NCBI GenBank assembly: GCA_902778275.1
Contig: CACYXE010000015.1
Location: 6,619 to 70,618 of the forward strand
Direction: 5' to 3'
From: Oscillospiraceae bacterium
Lineage (GTDB): Bacteria; Bacillota; Clostridia; Oscillospirales; Oscillospiraceae
DNA length: 64,000 nt
Below the pieces are notes generated by a model. It made no database searches and was not told where the DNA came from. It saw only the letters and a list, made by a program, of their open reading frames with translations. Shown in pieces: positions 3,143 to 61,790 of the stretch (position 1 is the first letter of the stretch; each line of letters begins with the position of its first letter). The position numbers and the translations under genes are program-made.

Positions 3143-4228
3143 TCAGTCGCCGAAGCTGATGCCGATGTTGCGGGCTACCTGGATCATGGGATGATCCACC
3201 GGCAGGAACTTGGTCTTGCTGGCGGCTTCTTCCAAAGGAATGGAGGTGATCCTGCCGTCCTGGATGGCCACCATACGGCCGTATTCCCGATTGATGATCA
3301 GCTCCGCCGCTGCGGTGCCGAACTGGGTGGCCAGGGCCCGGTCATAGGGGCAGGGGGGACCGCCGCGCTGATAGTGACCGGGGACCGTTACGCGGGCTTC
3401 CATGCCGGTAAGCCTCTCCAGCTCCGCCGCGATGGCATAGGAGATCGTGGGATACATGCTGTTTTCTTTCTTCTTGCGGCTGGCCTCTTCGTCCAGAACC
3501 GTATCGTCGATGGAGACGGCGCCTTCGGCGCAGGCTACGATGGAAAAGCTGCTGCCCCTGCGGCGGCGGCTTTCGACCAGCTCCGCCACCTTGTGGATAT
3601 CATAGGGGATCTCCGGGATCAGGATCACGTCCGCGCCGCTGGCGATGCCCGCATGCAGCGTCAGCCATCCGGCGTCACGGCCCATCAGCTCCACCACGAA
3701 AATGCGCCCGTGGGAGCTGGCGGTGGAGTGGATGTAGTCGATCACATTGGTGGCGATGTCCACGGCGCTCTGGAAGCCGAAGGTGGTATCCGTGCCGTAG
3801 ATATCGTTGTCGATGGTTTTGGGCAGGGTGATCACGTTCATGCCGTAATCGGCGATGAGCTTGGCGCTTTTCTGGGTACCGTTGCCGCCCATGATGACCA
3901 GACAGTCCAGATTCAAACGGTTATAGGTATGCAGCATGTCGGGCAGCAGGCTCCTGCCCTGCTCGTCCACAATGTCCTTGCCCGGAATATAGCGCTGCCG
4001 GGAAGTACCCAGGATCGTGCCGCCCTGGGTGAGGATGCCGGAGAAGTCCCGCGGCTCCATAAATTTATAGTCGCACTCGATGAGACCCCGGTAGCCGTCG
4101 TACATGCCGTAGATCTCCACATTGTCGAGCTTCTCATACAGGGTCTTGCCGATACCGCGAATGGCGGCGTTCAGCCCCTGACAATCGCCGCCGCTGGTGA
4201 CCAGCGCGACACGGGTCATTCTCTTCAT
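3143..4228 (-). CDS. pfkA: 6-phosphofructokinase
   Basis: Start trimmed to MKRMTRVALVTSGGDCQGLNAAIRG (ATG 4228, GGAGGATG SD). GGNGT, PKTIDNDI and MGR motifs. Confidence 0.9.
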   Translation of the reverse strand: MKRMTRVALVTSGGDCQGLNAAIRGIGKTLYEKLDNVEIYGMYDGYRGLIECDYKFMEPRDFSGILTQGGTILGTSRQRYIPGKDIVDEQGRSLLPDMLHTYNRLNLDCLVIMGGNGTQKSAKLIADYGMNVITLPKTIDNDIYGTDTTFGFQSAVDIATNVIDYIHSTASSHGRIFVVELMGRDAGWLTLHAGIASGADVILIPEIPYDIHKVAELVESRRRRGSSFSIVACAEGAVSIDDTVLDEEASRKKKENSMYPTISYAIAAELERLTGMEARVTVPGHYQRGGPPCPYDRALATQFGTAAAELIINREYGRMVAIQDGRITSIPLEEAASKTKFLPVDHPMIQVARNIGISFGD

Positions 4229-20223: not shown

Positions 20224-20262
20224 ATCGGAGGCACTCAGCAGAGTGCCTCCGATTTCTTTTTT
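20224..20262. terminator. Terminator shared by hsp20 and the convergent nhaC gene
   Basis: 13-bp perfect stem ATCGGAGGCACTC / GAGTGCCTCCGAT followed by a T-run. Overlaps the last codons of nhaC. Confidence 0.7.
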
Positions 20263-21545
20263 TGTATGAGCGCCTTTGCAAAACGTGACAGGGGGAGCAA
20301 ATAGAGCAGGCAGGCGGCCAGCAGGCTTTTGACCGGGACGCCCAATGTGGTAAGCGGAACGGAGCTTGCGATGGACCAGGGGATCAGCGGCGCGATGACG
20401 ATCACCGTGTCCTCCAGATCGATGGCAAAGCTCTCCTTTGATTCGCTCAGATCGCTGCACAGTTGATTGGTCAGCATGGCGGCCAGCGTCTGATTGCAGG
20501 AGATGGCGCAGGTAACGACAGCGGAACAGAACGTCGCCCCAAAGGGGGTGATGCGCCGGCTGATCTGTACGAGGCTGTGTTTGGCTCCGTCCAACAGTCC
20601 GGTGCCCTGAAAGATCCCCGCGTAGCAGGAGGAGATCAGGATGATGCCGATCACGCTGAGCATGGACACAACGCCGCCGCCGTCCACCATAGGCGCCAGG
20701 GCGGGGGAGGAGCTCCGATATCCTGCAAACAGGATGCGGAACACTTGTGAAATGTTGAGACCCTGCACGGTGATGCTGAGTACGGCTGCCAGCAGCAGGC
20801 TGACAGACAGTGTGAGCAGGACCGGCCTGCGGAAGAAGGACAGGATCAGTACCGCCAGGGCGGGCAGCACGCAGATCCAATGGAGCTGAAAGCCCTCCGC
20901 AAAGAGCGCGCGGATGTCCATGCCGCTGTCCGCCGGGTGGCTGTTGAGCCCCACCAGCAGATAGACGCCGCAGCTGAGCAGGAAGGGGAGCAGCACGGTC
21001 CGGCACATGCGGCGGATGTTCTGAAACAGGTCTGTGTCGGTCAGGGTACAGACCAGAAGGGCGCTGGTGGAAATGGGGGAGCAGCGGTCACCGAAGAAGG
21101 CCCCGGCCAGAATGGCCCCGCCGATCCAAACCGGGTCCATCTGCATGGTATTTGCCATGGTCATGCAGATGATGCCGATGGTGGCAACGGTACCGAAAGC
21201 GGTGCCGGTCAATACGGAGACGCCGCAGTTGAGCAGAAAACATAACAGCAGGAAAACAGATGGGCGGATCAGCCGGGAAGCGTAGCAAATGATGACCGCT
21301 ATGGTGCCGCTGGCCCGCCACAGAGCGGTCAGGGCGCCGATCAGCGCCATCATGATAAGGATCCCGCTGGCGGTCTTGACGCCGCTGAGGGACAGCCGCA
21401 GCAGCTCCCGCAGGGGAACACGCTTATACAGACCGTAGGCCAGGAACAGCAGCAGTCCGGCGAGCAGGGCGTACAGGATAGAGATATCCAGAAGGACGCA
21501 GCCCAGCAGAATCATACAGAACAGGGAAAGGGTAAGTGTCGCCAT
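20235..21545 (-). CDS. Na+/H+ antiporter NhaC family membrane protein
   Basis: 436-aa polytopic protein. GTAFGTVATIG and FFGDRCSPIS blocks are typical of NhaC-like transporters. Confidence 0.8.
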   Translation of the reverse strand: MATLTLSLFCMILLGCVLLDISILYALLAGLLLFLAYGLYKRVPLRELLRLSLSGVKTASGILIMMALIGALTALWRASGTIAVIICYASRLIRPSVFLLLCFLLNCGVSVLTGTAFGTVATIGIICMTMANTMQMDPVWIGGAILAGAFFGDRCSPISTSALLVCTLTDTDLFQNIRRMCRTVLLPFLLSCGVYLLVGLNSHPADSGMDIRALFAEGFQLHWICVLPALAVLILSFFRRPVLLTLSVSLLLAAVLSITVQGLNISQVFRILFAGYRSSSPALAPMVDGGGVVSMLSVIGIILISSCYAGIFQGTGLLDGAKHSLVQISRRITPFGATFCSAVVTCAISCNQTLAAMLTNQLCSDLSESKESFAIDLEDTVIVIAPLIPWSIASSVPLTTLGVPVKSLLAACLLYLLPLSRFAKALIQKKKSEALC

Positions 21546-35858: not shown

Positions 35859-35935
35859 GGGCTTGTAGCTCAGCTGGGAGAGCGCACGGTTCGCATCCGT
35901 GAGGTTCGAGGGTTCGATCCCCTTCAAGTCCACCA
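35859..35935 (+). tRNA. tRNA-Ala (anticodon CGC), CCA encoded
   Basis: Cloverleaf folds by hand. Acceptor GGGCTTG/CAAGTCC with the G3:U70 Ala identity pair, anticodon loop TTCGCAT, T-loop TTCGATC. 77 nt with one extra variable-loop base. Confidence 0.9.
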
Positions 35936-56084: not shown

Positions 56085-57182
56085 ATGGCCGAAATGAGAG
56101 AAAAGCGGGCGCTGATCGCCATGAGCGGCGGCGTGGACAGCTCCGTGGCGGCCTGGCTGATGCAGCGGCAGGGCTTTGCCTGCGAGGGAGTGAACCTGCA
56201 GCTGTACCGGAATACGGATATCGGTCTTGCCTGTCACAAGAGCTGCTGTACCGCCGAAGACCAGGCGGACGCCGCGGATGCCGCTTTCCGGCTGGGGATG
56301 CCTTTTGAGGTGCTGGATTACCAGGGGCTGTTTCGGGAACTGGTGATGGAGGACTTCGTGCGCAGCTATGAGGCGGGCCGCACACCCAACCCCTGCATCC
56401 AGTGCAATCGCCATATGAAATTCGATTTTCTCCTGGACTATGCGCTGGACCAGGGCTTTGACTGCCTGGCGTCCGGCCACTACGCGCGAAACGAATGGAA
56501 TGAGGAAACCGGCCGCTGGGAACTGAAGAAAGCCTTGGACGAGAGCAAGGACCAGACCTATGTCCTGTACATGCTGACGCAGCGGCAATTGTCCCGTTTG
56601 CGCTTCCCCCTGGGGGAATATCGCAAGACGGAGATCCGCAGGATCGCCGCGGAGCTGGGGCTGGTGACCGCCGCCAAGCCCGACAGCCAGGACATCTGCT
56701 TCGTGCCGGATGGGGATTATACGGCTTTTCTGGAGCGCTATACGGGAAAGCAATACCTGGCCGGGGATTTCCTGGACCTGACGGGAAAGAAGCTGGGCCG
56801 GCACCGGGGCGCGGTGCGCTACACGGTGGGCCAGCGCCGGGGACTGGAGCTGCCCATGGGCAGCCGGGTCTATGTGGTCTCCAAGGATATGGAGAGCAAC
56901 ACCGTCACCGTCGGGCCGGAGAGCGCCCTGTACAGCGACAGCCTGATCGCCGCGAGGATGAACTGGGTCTCCATCCCGGAACTGACGGAGCCTTTGCGGG
57001 TGACGGCCAGGACCCGCTACCGCCAGGCGGAACAGGCGGCCAACGCTTATCCCATGAGCGGAGGAAGGCTGCGCCTGGTCTTCGATGAACCCCAGCGGGC
57101 GGTCACGCCCGGACAGGCGGTGGTCCTGTATGACGGCGAACGGGTCGTGGGCGGCGGCACCATCCAGCGCGCGGAAAAATGA
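56085..57182 (+). CDS. mnmA: tRNA 2-thiouridine(34) synthase
   Basis: IAMSGGVDSSVAA PP-loop, NPCIQCN, DQTYVL. Confidence 0.92.
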   Translation: MAEMREKRALIAMSGGVDSSVAAWLMQRQGFACEGVNLQLYRNTDIGLACHKSCCTAEDQADAADAAFRLGMPFEVLDYQGLFRELVMEDFVRSYEAGRTPNPCIQCNRHMKFDFLLDYALDQGFDCLASGHYARNEWNEETGRWELKKALDESKDQTYVLYMLTQRQLSRLRFPLGEYRKTEIRRIAAELGLVTAAKPDSQDICFVPDGDYTAFLERYTGKQYLAGDFLDLTGKKLGRHRGAVRYTVGQRRGLELPMGSRVYVVSKDMESNTVTVGPESALYSDSLIAARMNWVSIPELTEPLRVTARTRYRQAEQAANAYPMSGGRLRLVFDEPQRAVTPGQAVVLYDGERVVGGGTIQRAEK

Positions 57183-57190
57183 AAAAGCTG

Positions 57191-57219
57191 TTGACAAGGG
57201 CGGAGGGCAGTGCTATGAT
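57191..57219 (+). promoter_or_regulatory. Promoter of the Met-rich leader/metNIQ unit
   Basis: TTGACA, 17 nt, TATGAT, starting 9 nt after the mnmA stop. Confidence 0.65.
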
Positions 57220-57265
57220 AAGCGCCAAGATCCCAGTTGACCTCTGGGAATGAATGGAGAAACAC

Positions 57266-57376
57266 ATGAAGAAGCAGACCAGCATGATGATGAGCATGTG
57301 CATGGACATGGCTATGATGCCGATGTTCATGATGCGTCGCGCGCAAAATTGCTGTGGCTGCCAGACATGCTTGTGA
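57266..57376 (+). CDS. 36-codon Met/Cys-rich small ORF (candidate leader peptide); not in the ORF track
   Basis: GGAG 6 nt upstream of the ATG. Product MKKQTSMMMSMCMDMAMMPMFMMRRAQNCCGCQTCL (12 Met, 5 Cys), stop TGA. Confidence 0.55.
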   Translation: MKKQTSMMMSMCMDMAMMPMFMMRRAQNCCGCQTCL

Positions 57377-57412
57377 TTTTCTTCATGATCGTTTGATCGT
57401 GCATGTGAATCC

Positions 57413-57445
57413 AAAGGCCGGGAGCCGCGGGCTCCCGGCCTTTTT
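57413..57445 (+). terminator. Intrinsic terminator/attenuator immediately upstream of metN
   Basis: 11-bp stem GGCCGGGAGCC / GGCTCCCGGCC, loop GCG, then TTTTT. Ends 27 nt before the metN GTG. Confidence 0.8.
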
Positions 57446-57472
57446 ACTTTTGTCATGACGGGAGGAAAACAA

Positions 57473-58519
57473 GTGATAGACCTTAGTCACATCAGCAAGG
57501 ATTTTGGAGATGGGGAAGCCCAGGTGCATGCCGTCAGGGATGTGTCCCTGAAGATCGCTGACGGCGACATCTTCGGCGTCATAGGCTTTTCCGGAGCGGG
57601 GAAGTCCACTCTTGTCCGCTGCATCAATCTGTTGGAGCGGCCCACGGCCGGCAGGGTGGTCGTGGATGGGCAGGAGATGACGCAGCTGTCGAGCGCCCAG
57701 CTTCGTCAGGCCAGAAAGAAGATCGGCATGATCTTCCAGCACTTCAACCTGATGCCCTCCCGCACGGTGGCCGACAATGTGGCCTATCCGCTGCGCCGCA
57801 GCGGCCTGAACAAGCAGGCAAGGCTGGCGCGTGTCCGGGAGCTTCTGGAGCTGGTGGGCATCGCCGACAAGGAGAACGCCTATCCCAGTCAGCTTTCCGG
57901 CGGGCAGAAGCAGCGTGTGGCCATTGCCCGCGCCCTGGCGAACGAGCCCAAGGTGCTTCTCTGCGATGAGGCCACCTCGGCCCTGGACCCCCAGACCACC
58001 AAGGCCATCCTCCACCTGCTGCGTGAAGTGAACGAGAAGCTGGGCATCACCATCGTCTTGATCACCCACGAAATGGCTGTGGTTAAGGAGATCTGCAACC
58101 GGGTCGCCGTCATGGAGCGGGGCCAGATCGTAGAGGAAGGGGACGTGTTCGGTATCTTCGCCGATCCCAAGCAGGATGTGACCCGCAACTTTATCAACTC
58201 TACCTCCAATCTGCATAAGATCGACGAACTGATCGACCTGAACGCCCACATCGCCCAGCTGAAGCCCGGCGAGCTGATCGTCCGGCTCAGTTACGCCACC
58301 CGCAACGTATCCGAGGCGCTGATTTCCCATGTGTCCAGAGAGTTCAATGTGGATGTGAACATCATCTTTGCCAACATTGAGATCCTGCAGGATTCCACCC
58401 TGGGCGGCACGGTGGCCATCTTCAGCGGCGAGCGGGAGAACATCACCAAAGCCATCGCCTTTATGATCGAGAAAAACGTAGGAGTGGAGGTGCTGAAAGA
58501 TGCAAGAGTTTCTGCTTAA
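57473..58519 (+). CDS. metN: Methionine ABC transporter ATP-binding protein (with C-terminal NIL domain)
   Basis: GTG 57473 with GGGAGG SD. Walker [30 protein letters not shown]-terminal NIL-like domain. Confidence 0.9.
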   Translation: MIDLSHISKDFGDGEAQVHAVRDVSLKIADGDIFGVIGFSGAGKSTLVRCINLLERPTAGRVVVDGQEMTQLSSAQLRQARKKIGMIFQHFNLMPSRTVADNVAYPLRRSGLNKQARLARVRELLELVGIADKENAYPSQLSGGQKQRVAIARALANEPKVLLCDEATSALDPQTTKAILHLLREVNEKLGITIVLITHEMAVVKEICNRVAVMERGQIVEEGDVFGIFADPKQDVTRNFINSTSNLHKIDELIDLNAHIAQLKPGELIVRLSYATRNVSEALISHVSREFNVDVNIIFANIEILQDSTLGGTVAIFSGERENITKAIAFMIEKNVGVEVLKDARVSA

Positions 58520-59180
58520 TATCATCCCCAACGTGGTGAAGGACGCCAACATCCTGGGCAGAAGCGTGATCGAGACCCTGCAGATGACCGTCCGCGCCGG
58601 CCTCATCTCCTTCGTGCTGGGCATGATCTTCGGTACCGCCCTGGTGGTCACCAGGCCCGGCGGCATCATGCAGAACAAAGTGATCTATCAGATCCTGGAC
58701 AAGGTGATCAACGTCCTGCGTTCCGTCCCCTTCATCATCCTGCTGTTCTGCCTGCTGCCTCTGACCCGGCTGATTTCCGGCACGGCTATCGGCGTCAAAG
58801 GCGCCATCGTCCCACTGGTCTTCGGCACCACGCCTTTCTTCTCCCGGCAGATCGAGGCGGCCCTCAGCGGCGTGGACGCCGGACTCATCGAAGCGGCCCA
58901 GTCCATGGGCAACAACAACTGGGAGATCATCTTCAGCGTGTACTGGAAGGAGAGCGTCGCGGCCATAGCCCGGGGTACTTCCATCACCCTTATCAATCTG
59001 GTGGGCCTCACCGCCATGGCGGGCGCCGTAGGCGCCGGCGGTCTGGGGAACTTCGCCTATATCTATGGTCAGCAGCGCAACCACATGGACGACATCTATG
59101 TGACGGTGGTGATCCTGGTGCTGCTGGTCATGCTGATCCAACTGATCGGAAACATCGTTGTTAAGCGGAATACGCATTAA
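58500..59180 (+). CDS. metI: Methionine ABC transporter permease
   Basis: Overlaps the metN end. 226-aa polytopic protein with EAAQSMG loop. Confidence 0.9.
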   Translation: MQEFLLNIIPNVVKDANILGRSVIETLQMTVRAGLISFVLGMIFGTALVVTRPGGIMQNKVIYQILDKVINVLRSVPFIILLFCLLPLTRLISGTAIGVKGAIVPLVFGTTPFFSRQIEAALSGVDAGLIEAAQSMGNNNWEIIFSVYWKESVAAIARGTSITLINLVGLTAMAGAVGAGGLGNFAYIYGQQRNHMDDIYVTVVILVLLVMLIQLIGNIVVKRNTH

Positions 59181-59255: not shown

Positions 59256-60119
59256 ATGAAAAAGATCCTTGCAATCGTATTGACACTGGTCATCGCCCTG
59301 TCCTTTGCCGCCTGCGGCTCCGGCAGCACCCAGCCTGCCGCCACGGCCGCTCCCGCAGCCGAGTCTTCGGAAGAGACCGCCGCGGAACCCGTCACCGTCC
59401 GGATCGGTCTGACCGGCGCTGTGTATGAGCCCATCTGGGACGTGGTGAAAGAGAAGCTGGCTCCCGAGGGCATCAATCTGGAGTATGTTCAGTTCAACAA
59501 CTTCTCTCTGCCCAACAATGCCCTGAACAACGGGGAGATCGAGATCAACGCTTTCCAGCACCACGCCTTTTTCAATAACGACACCAGCAGCAACGGCTAT
59601 GATCTCACCGCCATCGGCGACACTTACATCGTGGCCATGGGTATCTTTTCCGATAAGCTCACTGACCTGTCCGAACTGAAGGACGGCGACCTGGTGGGCG
59701 TGCCCAATGACGTGACCAACGAGGGCCGCGCTTTGAAGCTCCTGGAGTCCGCGGGTATCATCGTCATAGACCCTGAGGCCGGCAACTCTCCCACCATCAA
59801 CGACATCACCGAGTACAAGGTGCAGGTGAAGTTCCAGGAAGTGGACGCAAACCTGGTACCCTCCATCCTGCCTGACGTGGCCGTGGCCGTGGTCAACGGC
59901 AACTACGCCGCCGACGCCGGTCTGAAAGCCGCCGACGCTCTGTACATGGAGAACGAGTACTCCGACAACAGCTACTACTGCCTGATCGCTGTCCGCAGCG
60001 AGGACGCGGACAATCCCATCTATCAGCGCATCGTGGAAGCCTATCAGTGCGACGAGGTCATCGACGTATACAACAGCCAGTTCGCCGGCCTGTTCACTCC
60101 CACCTGGAAGCTGGGCTGA
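59256..60119 (+). CDS. metQ: MetQ/NlpA family methionine-binding lipoprotein
   Basis: Lipobox SFAACGS. INAFQH and VNGNYA blocks. AGGAGGAAG SD. Confidence 0.9.
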   Translation: MKKILAIVLTLVIALSFAACGSGSTQPAATAAPAAESSEETAAEPVTVRIGLTGAVYEPIWDVVKEKLAPEGINLEYVQFNNFSLPNNALNNGEIEINAFQHHAFFNNDTSSNGYDLTAIGDTYIVAMGIFSDKLTDLSELKDGDLVGVPNDVTNEGRALKLLESAGIIVIDPEAGNSPTINDITEYKVQVKFQEVDANLVPSILPDVAVAVVNGNYAADAGLKAADALYMENEYSDNSYYCLIAVRSEDADNPIYQRIVEAYQCDEVIDVYNSQFAGLFTPTWKLG

Positions 60120-60179: not shown

Positions 60180-60611
60180 CTATATGATGTAGTCGTATTC
60201 CACATTGTCCCTGGCCATCAGGTCCTCCAGGGTGAACTTGTCCAGATACTCTGCGATGACCCGGTCCAGCCCCTGCCAGAGGGGGAGGGTGCGGCAGCCG
60301 GCCATGCGCTTGCAGGGAGGACTGTCCTTATCCAGACAGGCCACCGGGGCCAGCGTGCCCTCCATCAGCCGGAGAATATCGCCCACCACGAACTGGTCGG
60401 GCGCCTTACTCAGCCGGTAACCGCCGCCCTTGCCGCGCAAGCCGGTCAGCATGCCTTCCTTGACCAGGGCCTTGACGATGCTCTCCAGATATTTTTCCGA
60501 GATCTCCTGGCGCTCGGCGACCTCCTTCAGCGGGACGTAGCCGGCGGACTGATGCTCCGCCATGTCCACCAAAACACGCAGGGCATAACGGCCCCTTGTA
60601 GATATCATCAT
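60180..60611 (-). CDS. Rrf2 family transcriptional regulator (CymR/IscR-like)
   Basis: Start at MMISTRGRYALR (ATG 60611). wHTH. Three Cys (C-x7-C-x5-C) that could bind an Fe-S cluster. Confidence 0.87.
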   Translation of the reverse strand: MMISTRGRYALRVLVDMAEHQSAGYVPLKEVAERQEISEKYLESIVKALVKEGMLTGLRGKGGGYRLSKAPDQFVVGDILRLMEGTLAPVACLDKDSPPCKRMAGCRTLPLWQGLDRVIAEYLDKFTLEDLMARDNVEYDYII

Positions 60612-60685
60612 AGGTCTCAACCTCGCTTATCCTGTATAAGCCTATTATACCGTGCGGTTTGTAGGATTTCAACGAAAATATTTTT

Positions 60686-60857: not shown

Positions 60858-61790
60858 ATGGCTAACATTTACACTTCTGCGGATCAACTGATCGGAAAAA
60901 CTCCTCTGCTGGAGCTTGTACATATCGAAAAGGAAGAGGGCCTGGAGGCCACCGTTCTGGCGAAGCTGGAGTACTTCAATCCCGCCGGTTCTGTGAAAGA
61001 CCGTATCGCCAAGGCCATGATCGACGACGCCGAGGCCAAGGGCCTGCTGAAGCCCAATTCTGTGATCATCGAGCCCACCTCCGGCAACACCGGCATCGGT
61101 CTCGCTTCCGTGGCCGCCGCCCGGGGCTACCGCATCATCATCGTAATGCCCGAGACCATGAGCGTGGAGCGCCGCCAGCTGATGAAGGCCTACGGCGCTG
61201 AGCTGGTGCTCACCGAGGGCGCCAAGGGAATGAAGGGCGCCATCGCCAAGGCGGATGAGCTGGCCGCCTCCATCCCTGACAGCTTTATCCCCGGCCAGTT
61301 TGTAAACCCTGCCAACCCCGCCGTCCATAAGGCTACCACCGGCCCCGAGATCTGGGACGACACCGACGGCAAGGTGGATTTCTTCGTAGCCGGCGTCGGC
61401 ACCGGCGGTACCATCACCGGCGTGGGTGAGTATCTCAAGAGCCGAAATCCCGACCTCAAGGTCGTGGCGGTGGAGCCTGCCGGGTCTCCCGTCCTGAGCA
61501 AGGGTACTCCCGGCGCCCACAAGATCCAGGGCATCGGCGCGGGCTTTGTCCCCGACGTGCTGGACACCAAAATCTACGATGAGATCATAGCGGTGGAGAA
61601 TGACGACGCCTTTGCCGCCGGCAGGAAGGTGGGCAAGGCGGAAGGCGTGCTGGTGGGTATCTCCTCCGGTGCAGCCGTATGGGCGGCCATCCAGCTGGCC
61701 AAGCGGCCGGAAAACAAGGGCAAGACCATTGTGGCCCTGCTGCCGGATACCGGCGACCGTTACCTCTCCACACCGCTCTTTGCCGAGTAA
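60858..61790 (+). CDS. cysK: Cysteine synthase A (O-acetylserine sulfhydrylase)
   Basis: [12 protein letters not shown]-lysine, TSGNTG, GTGGT; 310 aa. Confidence 0.92.

Follow-up and report, generated by a model that had tools for sequence, protein, structure and literature searches.

A short open reading frame (ORF) of 36 codons, unusually rich in methionine codons, precedes the methionine transporter operon metNIQ in a stretch of 64,000 nucleotides (nt) from an Oscillospiraceae bacterium (contig CACYXE010000015.1). This whole stretch is called the window, and coordinates are positions in it. We consider it probable, at about three chances in four, that the ORF and the intrinsic terminator behind it form a leader-peptide (ribosome-mediated) transcription attenuator, which would sense methionine through the charging of Met-tRNA. 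The proposal is based on the anatomy of the locus, its conservation, the constraint on the frame of the ATG triplets, the lack of a known riboswitch and the fact that metN can be reached only by read-through; from these we infer the stalling of ribosomes at the Met codons, the direction of the regulation, its coupling to transcription and the identity of the antiterminator.

The promoter, the GGAG box and the leader ORF with its 12 Met and 5 Cys codons were found exactly where an initial annotation, made by inspection of the sequence, had placed them (Table 1), and NCBIfam models identify the three downstream genes as metN, metI and metQ. The terminator proposed there is also present, although its 11-base-pair (bp) stem proved to be the G+C core of a longer one: the terminator scan gives 14 bp, ten of them G-C, followed by TTTTTACTTTTG. 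The metN start has the form GGGAGG-N7-GTG, with the GTG at 57473, 27 nt past the T-run. Within 56500..58500 no second promoter-like site was found besides that at 57191..57219, as the initial annotation had supposed. Since metN has no promoter of its own, its transcription depends on read-through of the terminator, and the hairpin necessarily gates the operon. The leader ORF is not annotated in the source assembly. The gene 5' of the leader is mnmA (NCBIfam), and a contig with identical MetN (L219, ENA ERZ27280284 k141_629285), whose region corresponds to positions 56873-59119 of the window, has no gene annotated between mnmA and metN. The metN product is called as 348 amino acids (aa) in public assemblies. 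An in-frame ATG at 57254, upstream of the Shine-Dalgarno (SD) sequence of the leader, is not kept in relatives.

A chance origin of the Met codons is excluded. Over the six frames of the whole window the mean is 0.6 ATG per 36 codons and the leader locus holds 12-13, with a binomial P of ~9e-13 for a single stretch of that length. The runner-up, at ~21.07-21.2 kb, has 8 per 36 codons. It corresponds to 21073-21180 on the plus strand (…ICMVFAMVMQMMPMVATV…), antisense to a 436-aa minus-strand ORF at 20235..21545, and was rejected as a second leader for its position inside that long ORF and its lack of a leader-like context. A His-rich ORF of 99 aa on the minus strand at 57047-57346 (…HHEHRHHSHVHAHAHHH…), overlapping the end of mnmA, was likewise discarded as a gene; it is an artefact that mirrors the CATG-rich Met block, CAT being a His codon.

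The same arrangement was found in other lineages. MetN was surveyed with one genome per species, and the 80 best loci were examined for leaders. Among them, a Met-rich short ORF (sORF) stands directly 5' of metN in Agathobaculum (L001), in Pseudoflavonifractor (L003 and L006, the latter P. phocaeensis) and in an Oscillospiraceae metagenome-assembled genome (L005). The order of the parts is common to them: a sigma-70-type promoter, an SD, the sORF, a G+C-rich hairpin with a T-run, a further SD and metN. The promoter consensus TTGACA is present in L001, L005 and L006 and is invariant in related leaders, and the SD of metN is kept in L081. A metagenome scan with the DNA core motif ATGGAYATG(N0-3)ATGATGNCNATG matched at least 120 stretches. 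About three quarters of the matches listed were chance occurrences in unrelated genes (surface proteins, proteases and similar) and were discarded; among those listed, every true match precedes metN or metQ, and no other methionine gene was found 3' of the motif. More than 15 distinct metagenome leaders carry the module, a 5' hairpin included, upstream of metNIQ or metQNI. A protein search with the single leader peptide gave only 3 matches, whereas a profile of the aligned peptides gave 95 peptide clusters of 30-69 aa with 8-14 Met each, the largest from 466 contigs. Their members are unnamed or annotated as 'hypothetical protein', and every genomic context examined for them was a metNIQ or metQNI operon.

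Four sequence types, or groups, share the invariant Met positions M..MDM.MM.M. These are type A, to which the window belongs (MKKQTSMMMSMCMDMAMMPMFMM...), type B (MT[HY]GYGMMM[ER][MG]MDMAMMPMP..LRAS..KF), type D (MIVxRFGMMMCMMDMGMMTMPK...) and type E (MKKLACVAMDMMMSMCMCSMCMLC...). Across their members the identity to the window MetN runs from ~100% down to 48%, and between module-bearing groups it is just 48-72%. Over this distance the sORF, its Met codons, the terminator and their place before metNIQ or metQNI are conserved; a scan of orthologous metN and metQ leaders for Met-rich sORFs had been suggested by the initial annotation.

The distribution of ATG triplets indicates that the leader ORF is read, because in 22 leaders 225 of them lie in the sORF frame and 25 out of it. 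In each leader examined the sORF opens with a start codon behind an SD-like purine-rich sequence, which is GGAG or, in L006, GAGG, and it closes with an in-frame stop ahead of the terminator; the GGAGA of the leader SD is invariant in alignments A1 and A4. The stop codon always lies before the terminator, at 6-66 nt (18-43 in group A, 36 in the window, 12-21 in group D). The invariant positions of the peptide are Met codons, while the tails vary and are frame-shifted among relatives, a pattern typical of regulatory codons. In L081/L082 and L083 a deletion of 1 nt (AAAATTGCTG to AAAA-TGCTG) turns NCCGCQTCL into NAVAAGHA or NAVAAQIAFDSCGV, and the tail nucleotides TGCTGTGGCTGCC are invariant across that frameshift. 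The GCGCGCCUSC box of group B, in turn, is read as RAS in L003 (LRASAWKF) and as CAP in L005 (CAPAHEGF). Because the nucleotides are invariant while the frame differs, the tail segments are under selection at the RNA level. The suggestion of the initial annotation that the Cys-rich C-terminus supplies a cysteine input, or makes a metal- or sulfur-binding micropeptide, had to be abandoned for the window lineage: in close relatives a single-nucleotide indel alters the tail and leaves its nucleotides in place.

No known RNA sensor occupies the leader. Rfam gave no SAM, T-box or other family match in 56900..57800, even at E<=10, in agreement with the failure of the initial annotation to find a SAM-I or T-box core, and at gathering score the only match in the whole window is one tRNA gene. 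Rfam was also run on 20 orthologous loci. The leaders of L001, L005 and L006 gave no SAM-family match, and the same search recovers a T-box (RF00230) in the orthologous metN leaders L004, L007, L012 and L014, at about 2150-2460, and a SAM-I riboswitch at the equivalent position in L019 (2267-2406). Since orthologous leaders carry a T-box or SAM-I there, the Met leader takes the slot of the usual Firmicute sensors. The central idea of the initial annotation, a translated Met-codon-rich leader ORF and a terminator in place of an S-box or T-box, is thereby supported by the cross-lineage conservation and by the absence of a riboswitch match. The leader peptide itself has no match in Pfam and only a weak sub-threshold one in NCBIfam (14.6 bits against a cut-off of 1086). 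As a further observation, the MetN of T-box and SAM-I operons is 56-65% identical to that of the window, and that of group D Met-leader operons only 48-52%. Because the more distant MetN carries the Met leader and the closer ones a T-box or SAM-I, the type of sensor seems to have been repeatedly exchanged, or to move with the operon.

Table 1. Features of the metNIQ leader and operon, and the tRNA gene found elsewhere in the window
Feature	Position	Strand	Remark
Sigma-70-type promoter, TTGACA-17-TATGAT with TG extension	57191..57219	+	11/12 consensus matches
5' stem-loop of the leader transcript (UCCCAG/CUGGGA)	57231..57249	+	predicted fold
SD of the leader ORF, GGAG	57256..57259	+	6 nt before ATG 57266
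Start-codon-region arm of the long-range helix closing the sORF	57265..57286	+	inverted repeat I1
Leader ORF, 36 codons + TGA, peptide MKKQTSMMMSMCMDMAMMPMFMMRRAQNCCGCQTCL	57266..57376	+	12 Met, 5 Cys
Regulatory Met-codon block, core MDMAMMPM	57284..57334	+	11 ATG in 17 codons
Candidate region 1 (GUCGCG), just 3' of the last Met codons	57336..57341	+	putative local pairing with 57353..57358
Candidate region 2 (UGUGGCUGCC), proposed antiterminator 5' strand	57353..57362	+	within the final sORF codons
Stop-codon-region arm of the long-range helix	57366..57387	+	partner in inverted repeat I1
Intrinsic terminator, 14-bp stem 57413..57426 / 57430..57443, loop GCG, T-run	57413..57449	+	
Region 3, upper 5' arm of the terminator + loop, proposed antiterminator 3' strand	57420..57429	+	
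SD of metN, GGGAGG	57460..57465	+	
metN, methionine ABC transporter ATPase, GTG start	57473..58519	+	TIGR02314 ABC_MetN, E = 7e-125
metI, permease	58500..59180	+	NF008049, E = 1.3e-57
metQ, substrate-binding lipoprotein	59256..60119	+	NF008285/TIGR00363, E about 1e-47
tRNA gene	35859-35932	+	Rfam gathering score

The leader transcript is predicted to be strongly folded (z-score -5.25 for 57226..57480). A consensus fold of group A was computed with RNAalifold from five distinct sequences, and groups B and D were aligned in twelve; the ten P0004 places are nearly identical, so that their gain for covariation was nil. The 5' hairpin shows compensatory changes at three pairs in group A (UA/CG, AU/GC and four pair types at one), and would serve as a stabiliser of the 5' end or as a folding element. 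The arms of the long-range helix, 22 nt each, are 77% complementary, and part of the helix is kept in the group A consensus. In the same consensus the CAUG palindromes of the Met block form hairpins, and GUCGCG (57336..57341) and UGUGGC (57353..57358) pair in a local hairpin that is also a column-consistent helix. All members of the family have an equivalent terminator, with a compensatory G-C to A-U change in relatives. In groups B and D a 9-bp helix joins the SD box (GGAG.CGCGC) to a box after the Met codons, the post-Met box (GCGCG.CUCC), with 91.5% of the alignment cells paired and little covariation; the stop-codon-region arm of the window is analogous to this helix. The latter can be seen in columns 7-16 / 92-101 of alignment A5 (e.g. 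L005:2266-2280 / 2351-2362), in which the SD box GGAGGCGCGCC is complementary to the GCGCGCCUCC box. This arrangement suggests that, in groups B and D, transcription of the post-Met box would prevent re-initiation on the leader, which would amount to a design of one ribosome per transcript.

The initial annotation had seen no convincing antiterminator by eye, and a moderately supported candidate, 57353-57362 / 57420-57429, is now proposed. In group A, region 2 (UGUGGCU.CC) faces GG.AGCC and the loop of the terminator, with 97.8% of the cells paired and 35-55% in slid controls. Relatives that read region 2 in different frames keep its nucleotides unchanged, and the changes in this 2:3 pairing are one-sided only. 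The loop of the group A terminator is GCG, GCA or AUG, and wobble pairs keep its complementarity to the UGUG of region 2. The post-Met box of groups B and D faces the 5' arm of the terminator with its 3' part, and 90% of the cells are paired; three pairs change on both sides (for instance G-C in D and A-U in B). This helix has a covariation score of 0.427; shuffles give 0.336, with 15 of 500 reaching the observed value, and slid strands give ~0.1. Taken together, the pairings give a candidate 1:2 / 2:3 / 3:4 layout of the classical kind. Partition-function models with a ribosome footprint of 31 nt point in the same direction. In the window, the 5' arm of the terminator is engaged upstream with P 0.66-0.71 when the ribosome stands at Met7-9 and with 0.01-0.06 when it stands at the stop. 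Over 21 leaders the mean P is 0.52 at the Met codons and 0.41 at the stop (one-sided Wilcoxon p = 0.03, the sequences being non-independent). The antiterminator is a reasonable proposal, which we would place somewhat short of even odds. An additional switch suggested for the locus, sequestration of the metN SD by the 3' arm of the terminator, was set aside, as that arm is already paired in the terminator and a complementarity of CUCCC to GGGAG is trivial for purine-rich SDs.

According to the proposed mechanism, a transcript started at the promoter would by default end at 57445..57449, leaving metNIQ off. A ribosome would load at the GGAG and the ATG at 57266 and translate the leader ORF. When methionine is ample, it would pass the 11-codon Met block, reach the stop at 57374 and cover or unwind region 2; with region 2 occluded the terminator hairpin would form and RNA polymerase would release the transcript. 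When Met-tRNA is scarce, the ribosome would stall within the Met block and mask region 1, and region 2, staying free, would pair with region 3. The terminator would then be blocked, and read-through into metN, metI and metQ would raise the uptake of methionine. On a transcript free of ribosomes, the 1:2 pairing, which in groups B and D is that of the SD box with the post-Met box, would also permit termination.

Several points weigh against this mechanism, some against the antiterminator and others against the attenuator as such. The duplexes between region 2 and the terminator arm have energies of -7 to -16 kcal/mol (mean -13.1), hardly different from the -12.8 obtained with non-cognate arms. 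The duplex of the window, at -11.1 kcal/mol, has z = +0.8 against shuffles, and those of the family are only marginally better than mononucleotide shuffles. Duplex energy alone is no proof of an antiterminator. In addition, the antiterminator helices were picked post hoc from a scan, and the sequences behind them are few and related. Translation of the leader must itself start with Met-tRNAfMet, and under severe starvation sensing could therefore fail. Ribosome-coupled attenuation also needs a ribosome that keeps pace with RNA polymerase, and in B. subtilis transcription is reported to run ahead of translation (Johnson et al. 2020, as summarised in PMC7858274). Finally, with a stop codon only 12-21 nt from the terminator, a terminating ribosome in group D might hinder the terminator rather than permit it.

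Other Met-rich leaders lack the core, or have cysteine codons among those for methionine. In type E the leader peptide MKKLACVAMDMMMSMCMCSMCMLCRANISDVQPSGV has 9 Met residues with 5 Cys interspersed (L211:4001-4111 and, on the reverse strand, L097, oriented 3786-3920), and the operon behind it is ordered metQ-metN-metI. Although the Cys tail of the window is unconserved, there may be a dual Met/Cys input in some lineages. Met-rich sORFs that lack MDMxMM lie between a promoter and a terminator 5' of metN in Holdemanella (MKTMMMSMMQMYMCINVTRFSIRLSRV; L030:2361-2480, L059:2361-2480) and in Lachnoclostridium phytofermentans (MRTVNLINTMNMKMCCNNGCMCNSMPNTVRSKSGFL; L009:2260-2445). The device may have been invented independently in these lineages. 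The candidate antiterminator of L030, CCCGGUUUU / AAGGCCGGG, has 9 bp, -14.5 kcal/mol and z = -2.3, and lies ahead of a stop codon only 6 nt from the terminator.

The alternatives differ from the attenuator in what is supposed to be sensed, or in what is supposed to sense it. The conservation of the peptide core, G-MMM-x-M-MDM-A-MM-P-MP, exceeds the needs of a pure codon counter, the non-Met D and the G before MMM being nearly invariant across groups and the P mostly kept. The nascent peptide itself could therefore be the sensor, like TnaC, SpeFL or plant CGS1, if the core bound free methionine or S-adenosylmethionine (SAM) in the exit tunnel and arrested the ribosome independently of tRNA charging. 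This would invert the logic, however, since the importer would be induced when methionine or SAM is high, through a stalled ribosome and a free region 2. Moreover, the codons conserved for residues other than Met are part of the CAUG-based hairpin, which can explain their conservation, and the leaders of Holdemanella and L. phytofermentans are Met-rich yet without the core. On balance a peptide sensor seems quite unlikely.

Even less credit can be given to two further explanations, which we hold to be equally improbable. One takes the product of the sORF as a functional Met/Cys-rich micropeptide (metal-binding, antioxidant, or similar to SCIFF and other ribosomally synthesized and post-translationally modified peptides, RiPPs), with the hairpin as its own leaky terminator. 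The peptides do form a conserved family, that of the window ends in NCCGCQTCL, and those of group E and L009 alternate Met and Cys. But the tail is frame-shifted over invariant nucleotides in close relatives and in group B, and no qualifying match was found in Pfam or NCBIfam, SCIFF and Cys-rich RiPP precursor models included. No maturase, exporter or radical-SAM gene adjoins the sORF, its neighbours being mnmA and metN, and with metN lacking a promoter the hairpin gates the operon in any case. The other explanation regards the ORF as incidental to an RNA switch independent of translation, be it a riboswitch of a kind not yet described or a protein of the TRAP type bound to AUG triplet repeats. 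The strong conservation of nucleotides, including segments read in different frames, the conserved long-range helices and the stability of the fold would all be expected of such a switch. Against it stand the bias of ATG towards the sORF frame, the presence of an SD-like sequence, a start and an in-frame stop in every leader examined and the lack of a match to any Rfam model, and much of the predicted structure is an automatic result of the CAUG palindromes. Triplet binding of the TRAP type was rejected, given that all spacers are multiples of three and the ATGs keep the frame, neither of which protein binding needs. Least probable of all is translation-dependent control with no antiterminator hairpin and possibly a different or opposite logic, in which a ribosome at the stop would directly affect the folding of the terminator or the sORF would tune mRNA stability or SD accessibility: the short distance of 6-21 nt from stop to terminator in group D and Holdemanella, the strong helix of groups B and D in which the sORF SD is sequestered and the weak statistics of the antiterminator agree with it, but the 18-43 nt of group A are too far for steric blocking in most members, an importer induced by plentiful methionine makes little physiological sense, and candidate 2:3 pairings exist in all groups.

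The leader-peptide attenuator is retained, and it could be extended. The invariant core, G-MMM-x-M-MDM-x-MM-P-M-P, and the SD-sequestering helix would together make the element more than a codon counter, namely a sensor that uses a single ribosome. Within this extension, the nascent peptide or a slow, Pro-linked formation of peptide bonds would sharpen the stalling, the elongator Met-tRNA and not the initiator would be read, and interleaved Cys codons would add a cysteine input in group E, L. phytofermentans and possibly the metL of Streptomyces. As a joint claim this is rather unlikely. Were it true, the wide conservation of the leader would imply that ribosomes pace RNA polymerase in Oscillospiraceae, unlike the runaway transcription of B. 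subtilis.

The surroundings of the operon also contain genes related to sulfur metabolism. Directly 3' of metQ, at 60180-60620 on the minus strand, lies a gene for an Rrf2-family regulator, for which the best specific models, IscR and CymR, are both below their cut-offs. It is divergent from cysK (cysteine synthase A) at 60858-61790 on the plus strand, so that metNIQ, the regulator and cysK form a small sulfur amino-acid neighbourhood.

The classical leader-peptide attenuators of amino-acid operons are those of Proteobacteria, trpL, hisL, leuL, pheL, thrL and ilvL (for reviews see the papers cited in PMC2965389). The Met leader resembles the trpL type in its promoter, its SD and its short ORF rich in cognate codons, in the intrinsic terminator that separates the ORF from the structural genes, in a stop codon some tens of nt ahead of that terminator, and in its candidate 1:2, 2:3 and 3:4 pairings. 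It differs in that the regulatory codon is that of methionine, a single codon that is also the start codon, and in the unusually large number of 11-12 regulatory codons. Furthermore, the operon encodes an importer and not a biosynthetic pathway, the host is a Firmicute of the Clostridium class, there is no sequence homology, and in groups B and D the place of region 1 is taken by the SD box of the sORF itself.

Firmicute methionine genes are the textbook case of sensing by RNA alone, through the S-box and the T-box. The Met leader has the same position and the same terminator before metN as the Met T-box (RF00230) and SAM-I (RF00162; for the met T-box of S. aureus see PMC3771891), and the T-box likewise reads the charging of tRNA-Met. 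In these systems the sensor is a structured RNA, whereas here it would be the translating ribosome, and the window has neither aptamer. Ribosome-mediated attenuation does occur in Firmicutes in replacement of T-boxes, as illustrated in bacilli by leaders with His codons before hisS/hisZ paralogues (PMC2965389) and in S. aureus by a Leu-rich attenuator peptide of ilv-leu (PMC5794164), but in these cases the amino acids and the genes are others and the sequences show no relation to the Met leader.

The general idea of a methionine leader peptide is not new, and in this respect the initial annotation, which knew of no described methionine version, must be corrected. In C. jejuni, a MetL of 20 aa with 3 Met codons was predicted upstream of metBA by Porcelli et al. 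(PMC3847290), and its translation start was later seen by translation initiation site profiling (PMC11955535). The same work proposed as a leader peptide the Met-enriched CJsORF19, MMYQMR, upstream of the MetQ-like Cj0772c (PMC11955535). In S. lividans, a metL of 29 aa, MSTTSDRTPATEATTTPGARCMCRRMCAF (…ARCMCRRMCAF), is annotated upstream of metNIQ, with no recognisable intrinsic terminator according to its authors (PMC8079986). Like the Met leader, these are short ORFs with Met codons before methionine genes, proposed as Met-sensing attenuators; a methionine ABC transporter follows two of the three, and the S. lividans metL also mixes Met and Cys codons. Their peptides, by inspection, contain 3-4 Met codons but not the MDMxMMxM core; the leaders belong to different phyla and were presented without comparative or mechanistic analysis. 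Compared by eye, they are treated here as functional analogues and not as homologues. A ribosome that reads the supply of a sulfur amino acid on a short ORF rich in cognate codons is likewise supposed for the Cys-codon leader sORFs of Actinobacteria (PMC1262725) and the polycysteine leaderless sORFs of mycobacteria (bioRxiv 10.1101/834739). They differ from the Met leader in using Cys codons, in being leaderless and in lacking an intrinsic terminator, and the Cys codons in the tail of the window leader are unconserved.

A full-text literature search gave no description of a Met leader family with the MDMxMM core. Earlier proposals were single-genome predictions, and the present comparison offers the first multi-lineage support for a methionine leader-peptide attenuator. 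Many abundant gut Clostridia, represented by hundreds of contigs, appear to read the charging of Met-tRNA by ribosome before the methionine importer. The leader provides a natural test of transcription-translation coupling in these bacteria, and it bears on how a cell can sense an amino acid that is also required for the start of translation. In practical terms, the sORF merits annotation, and the motif could become an RNA or peptide family model. Within the class of leader-peptide attenuators, the clostridial Met leader is best filed as a new and widespread candidate family, unrelated in sequence to the known ones and much more dense in Met codons.

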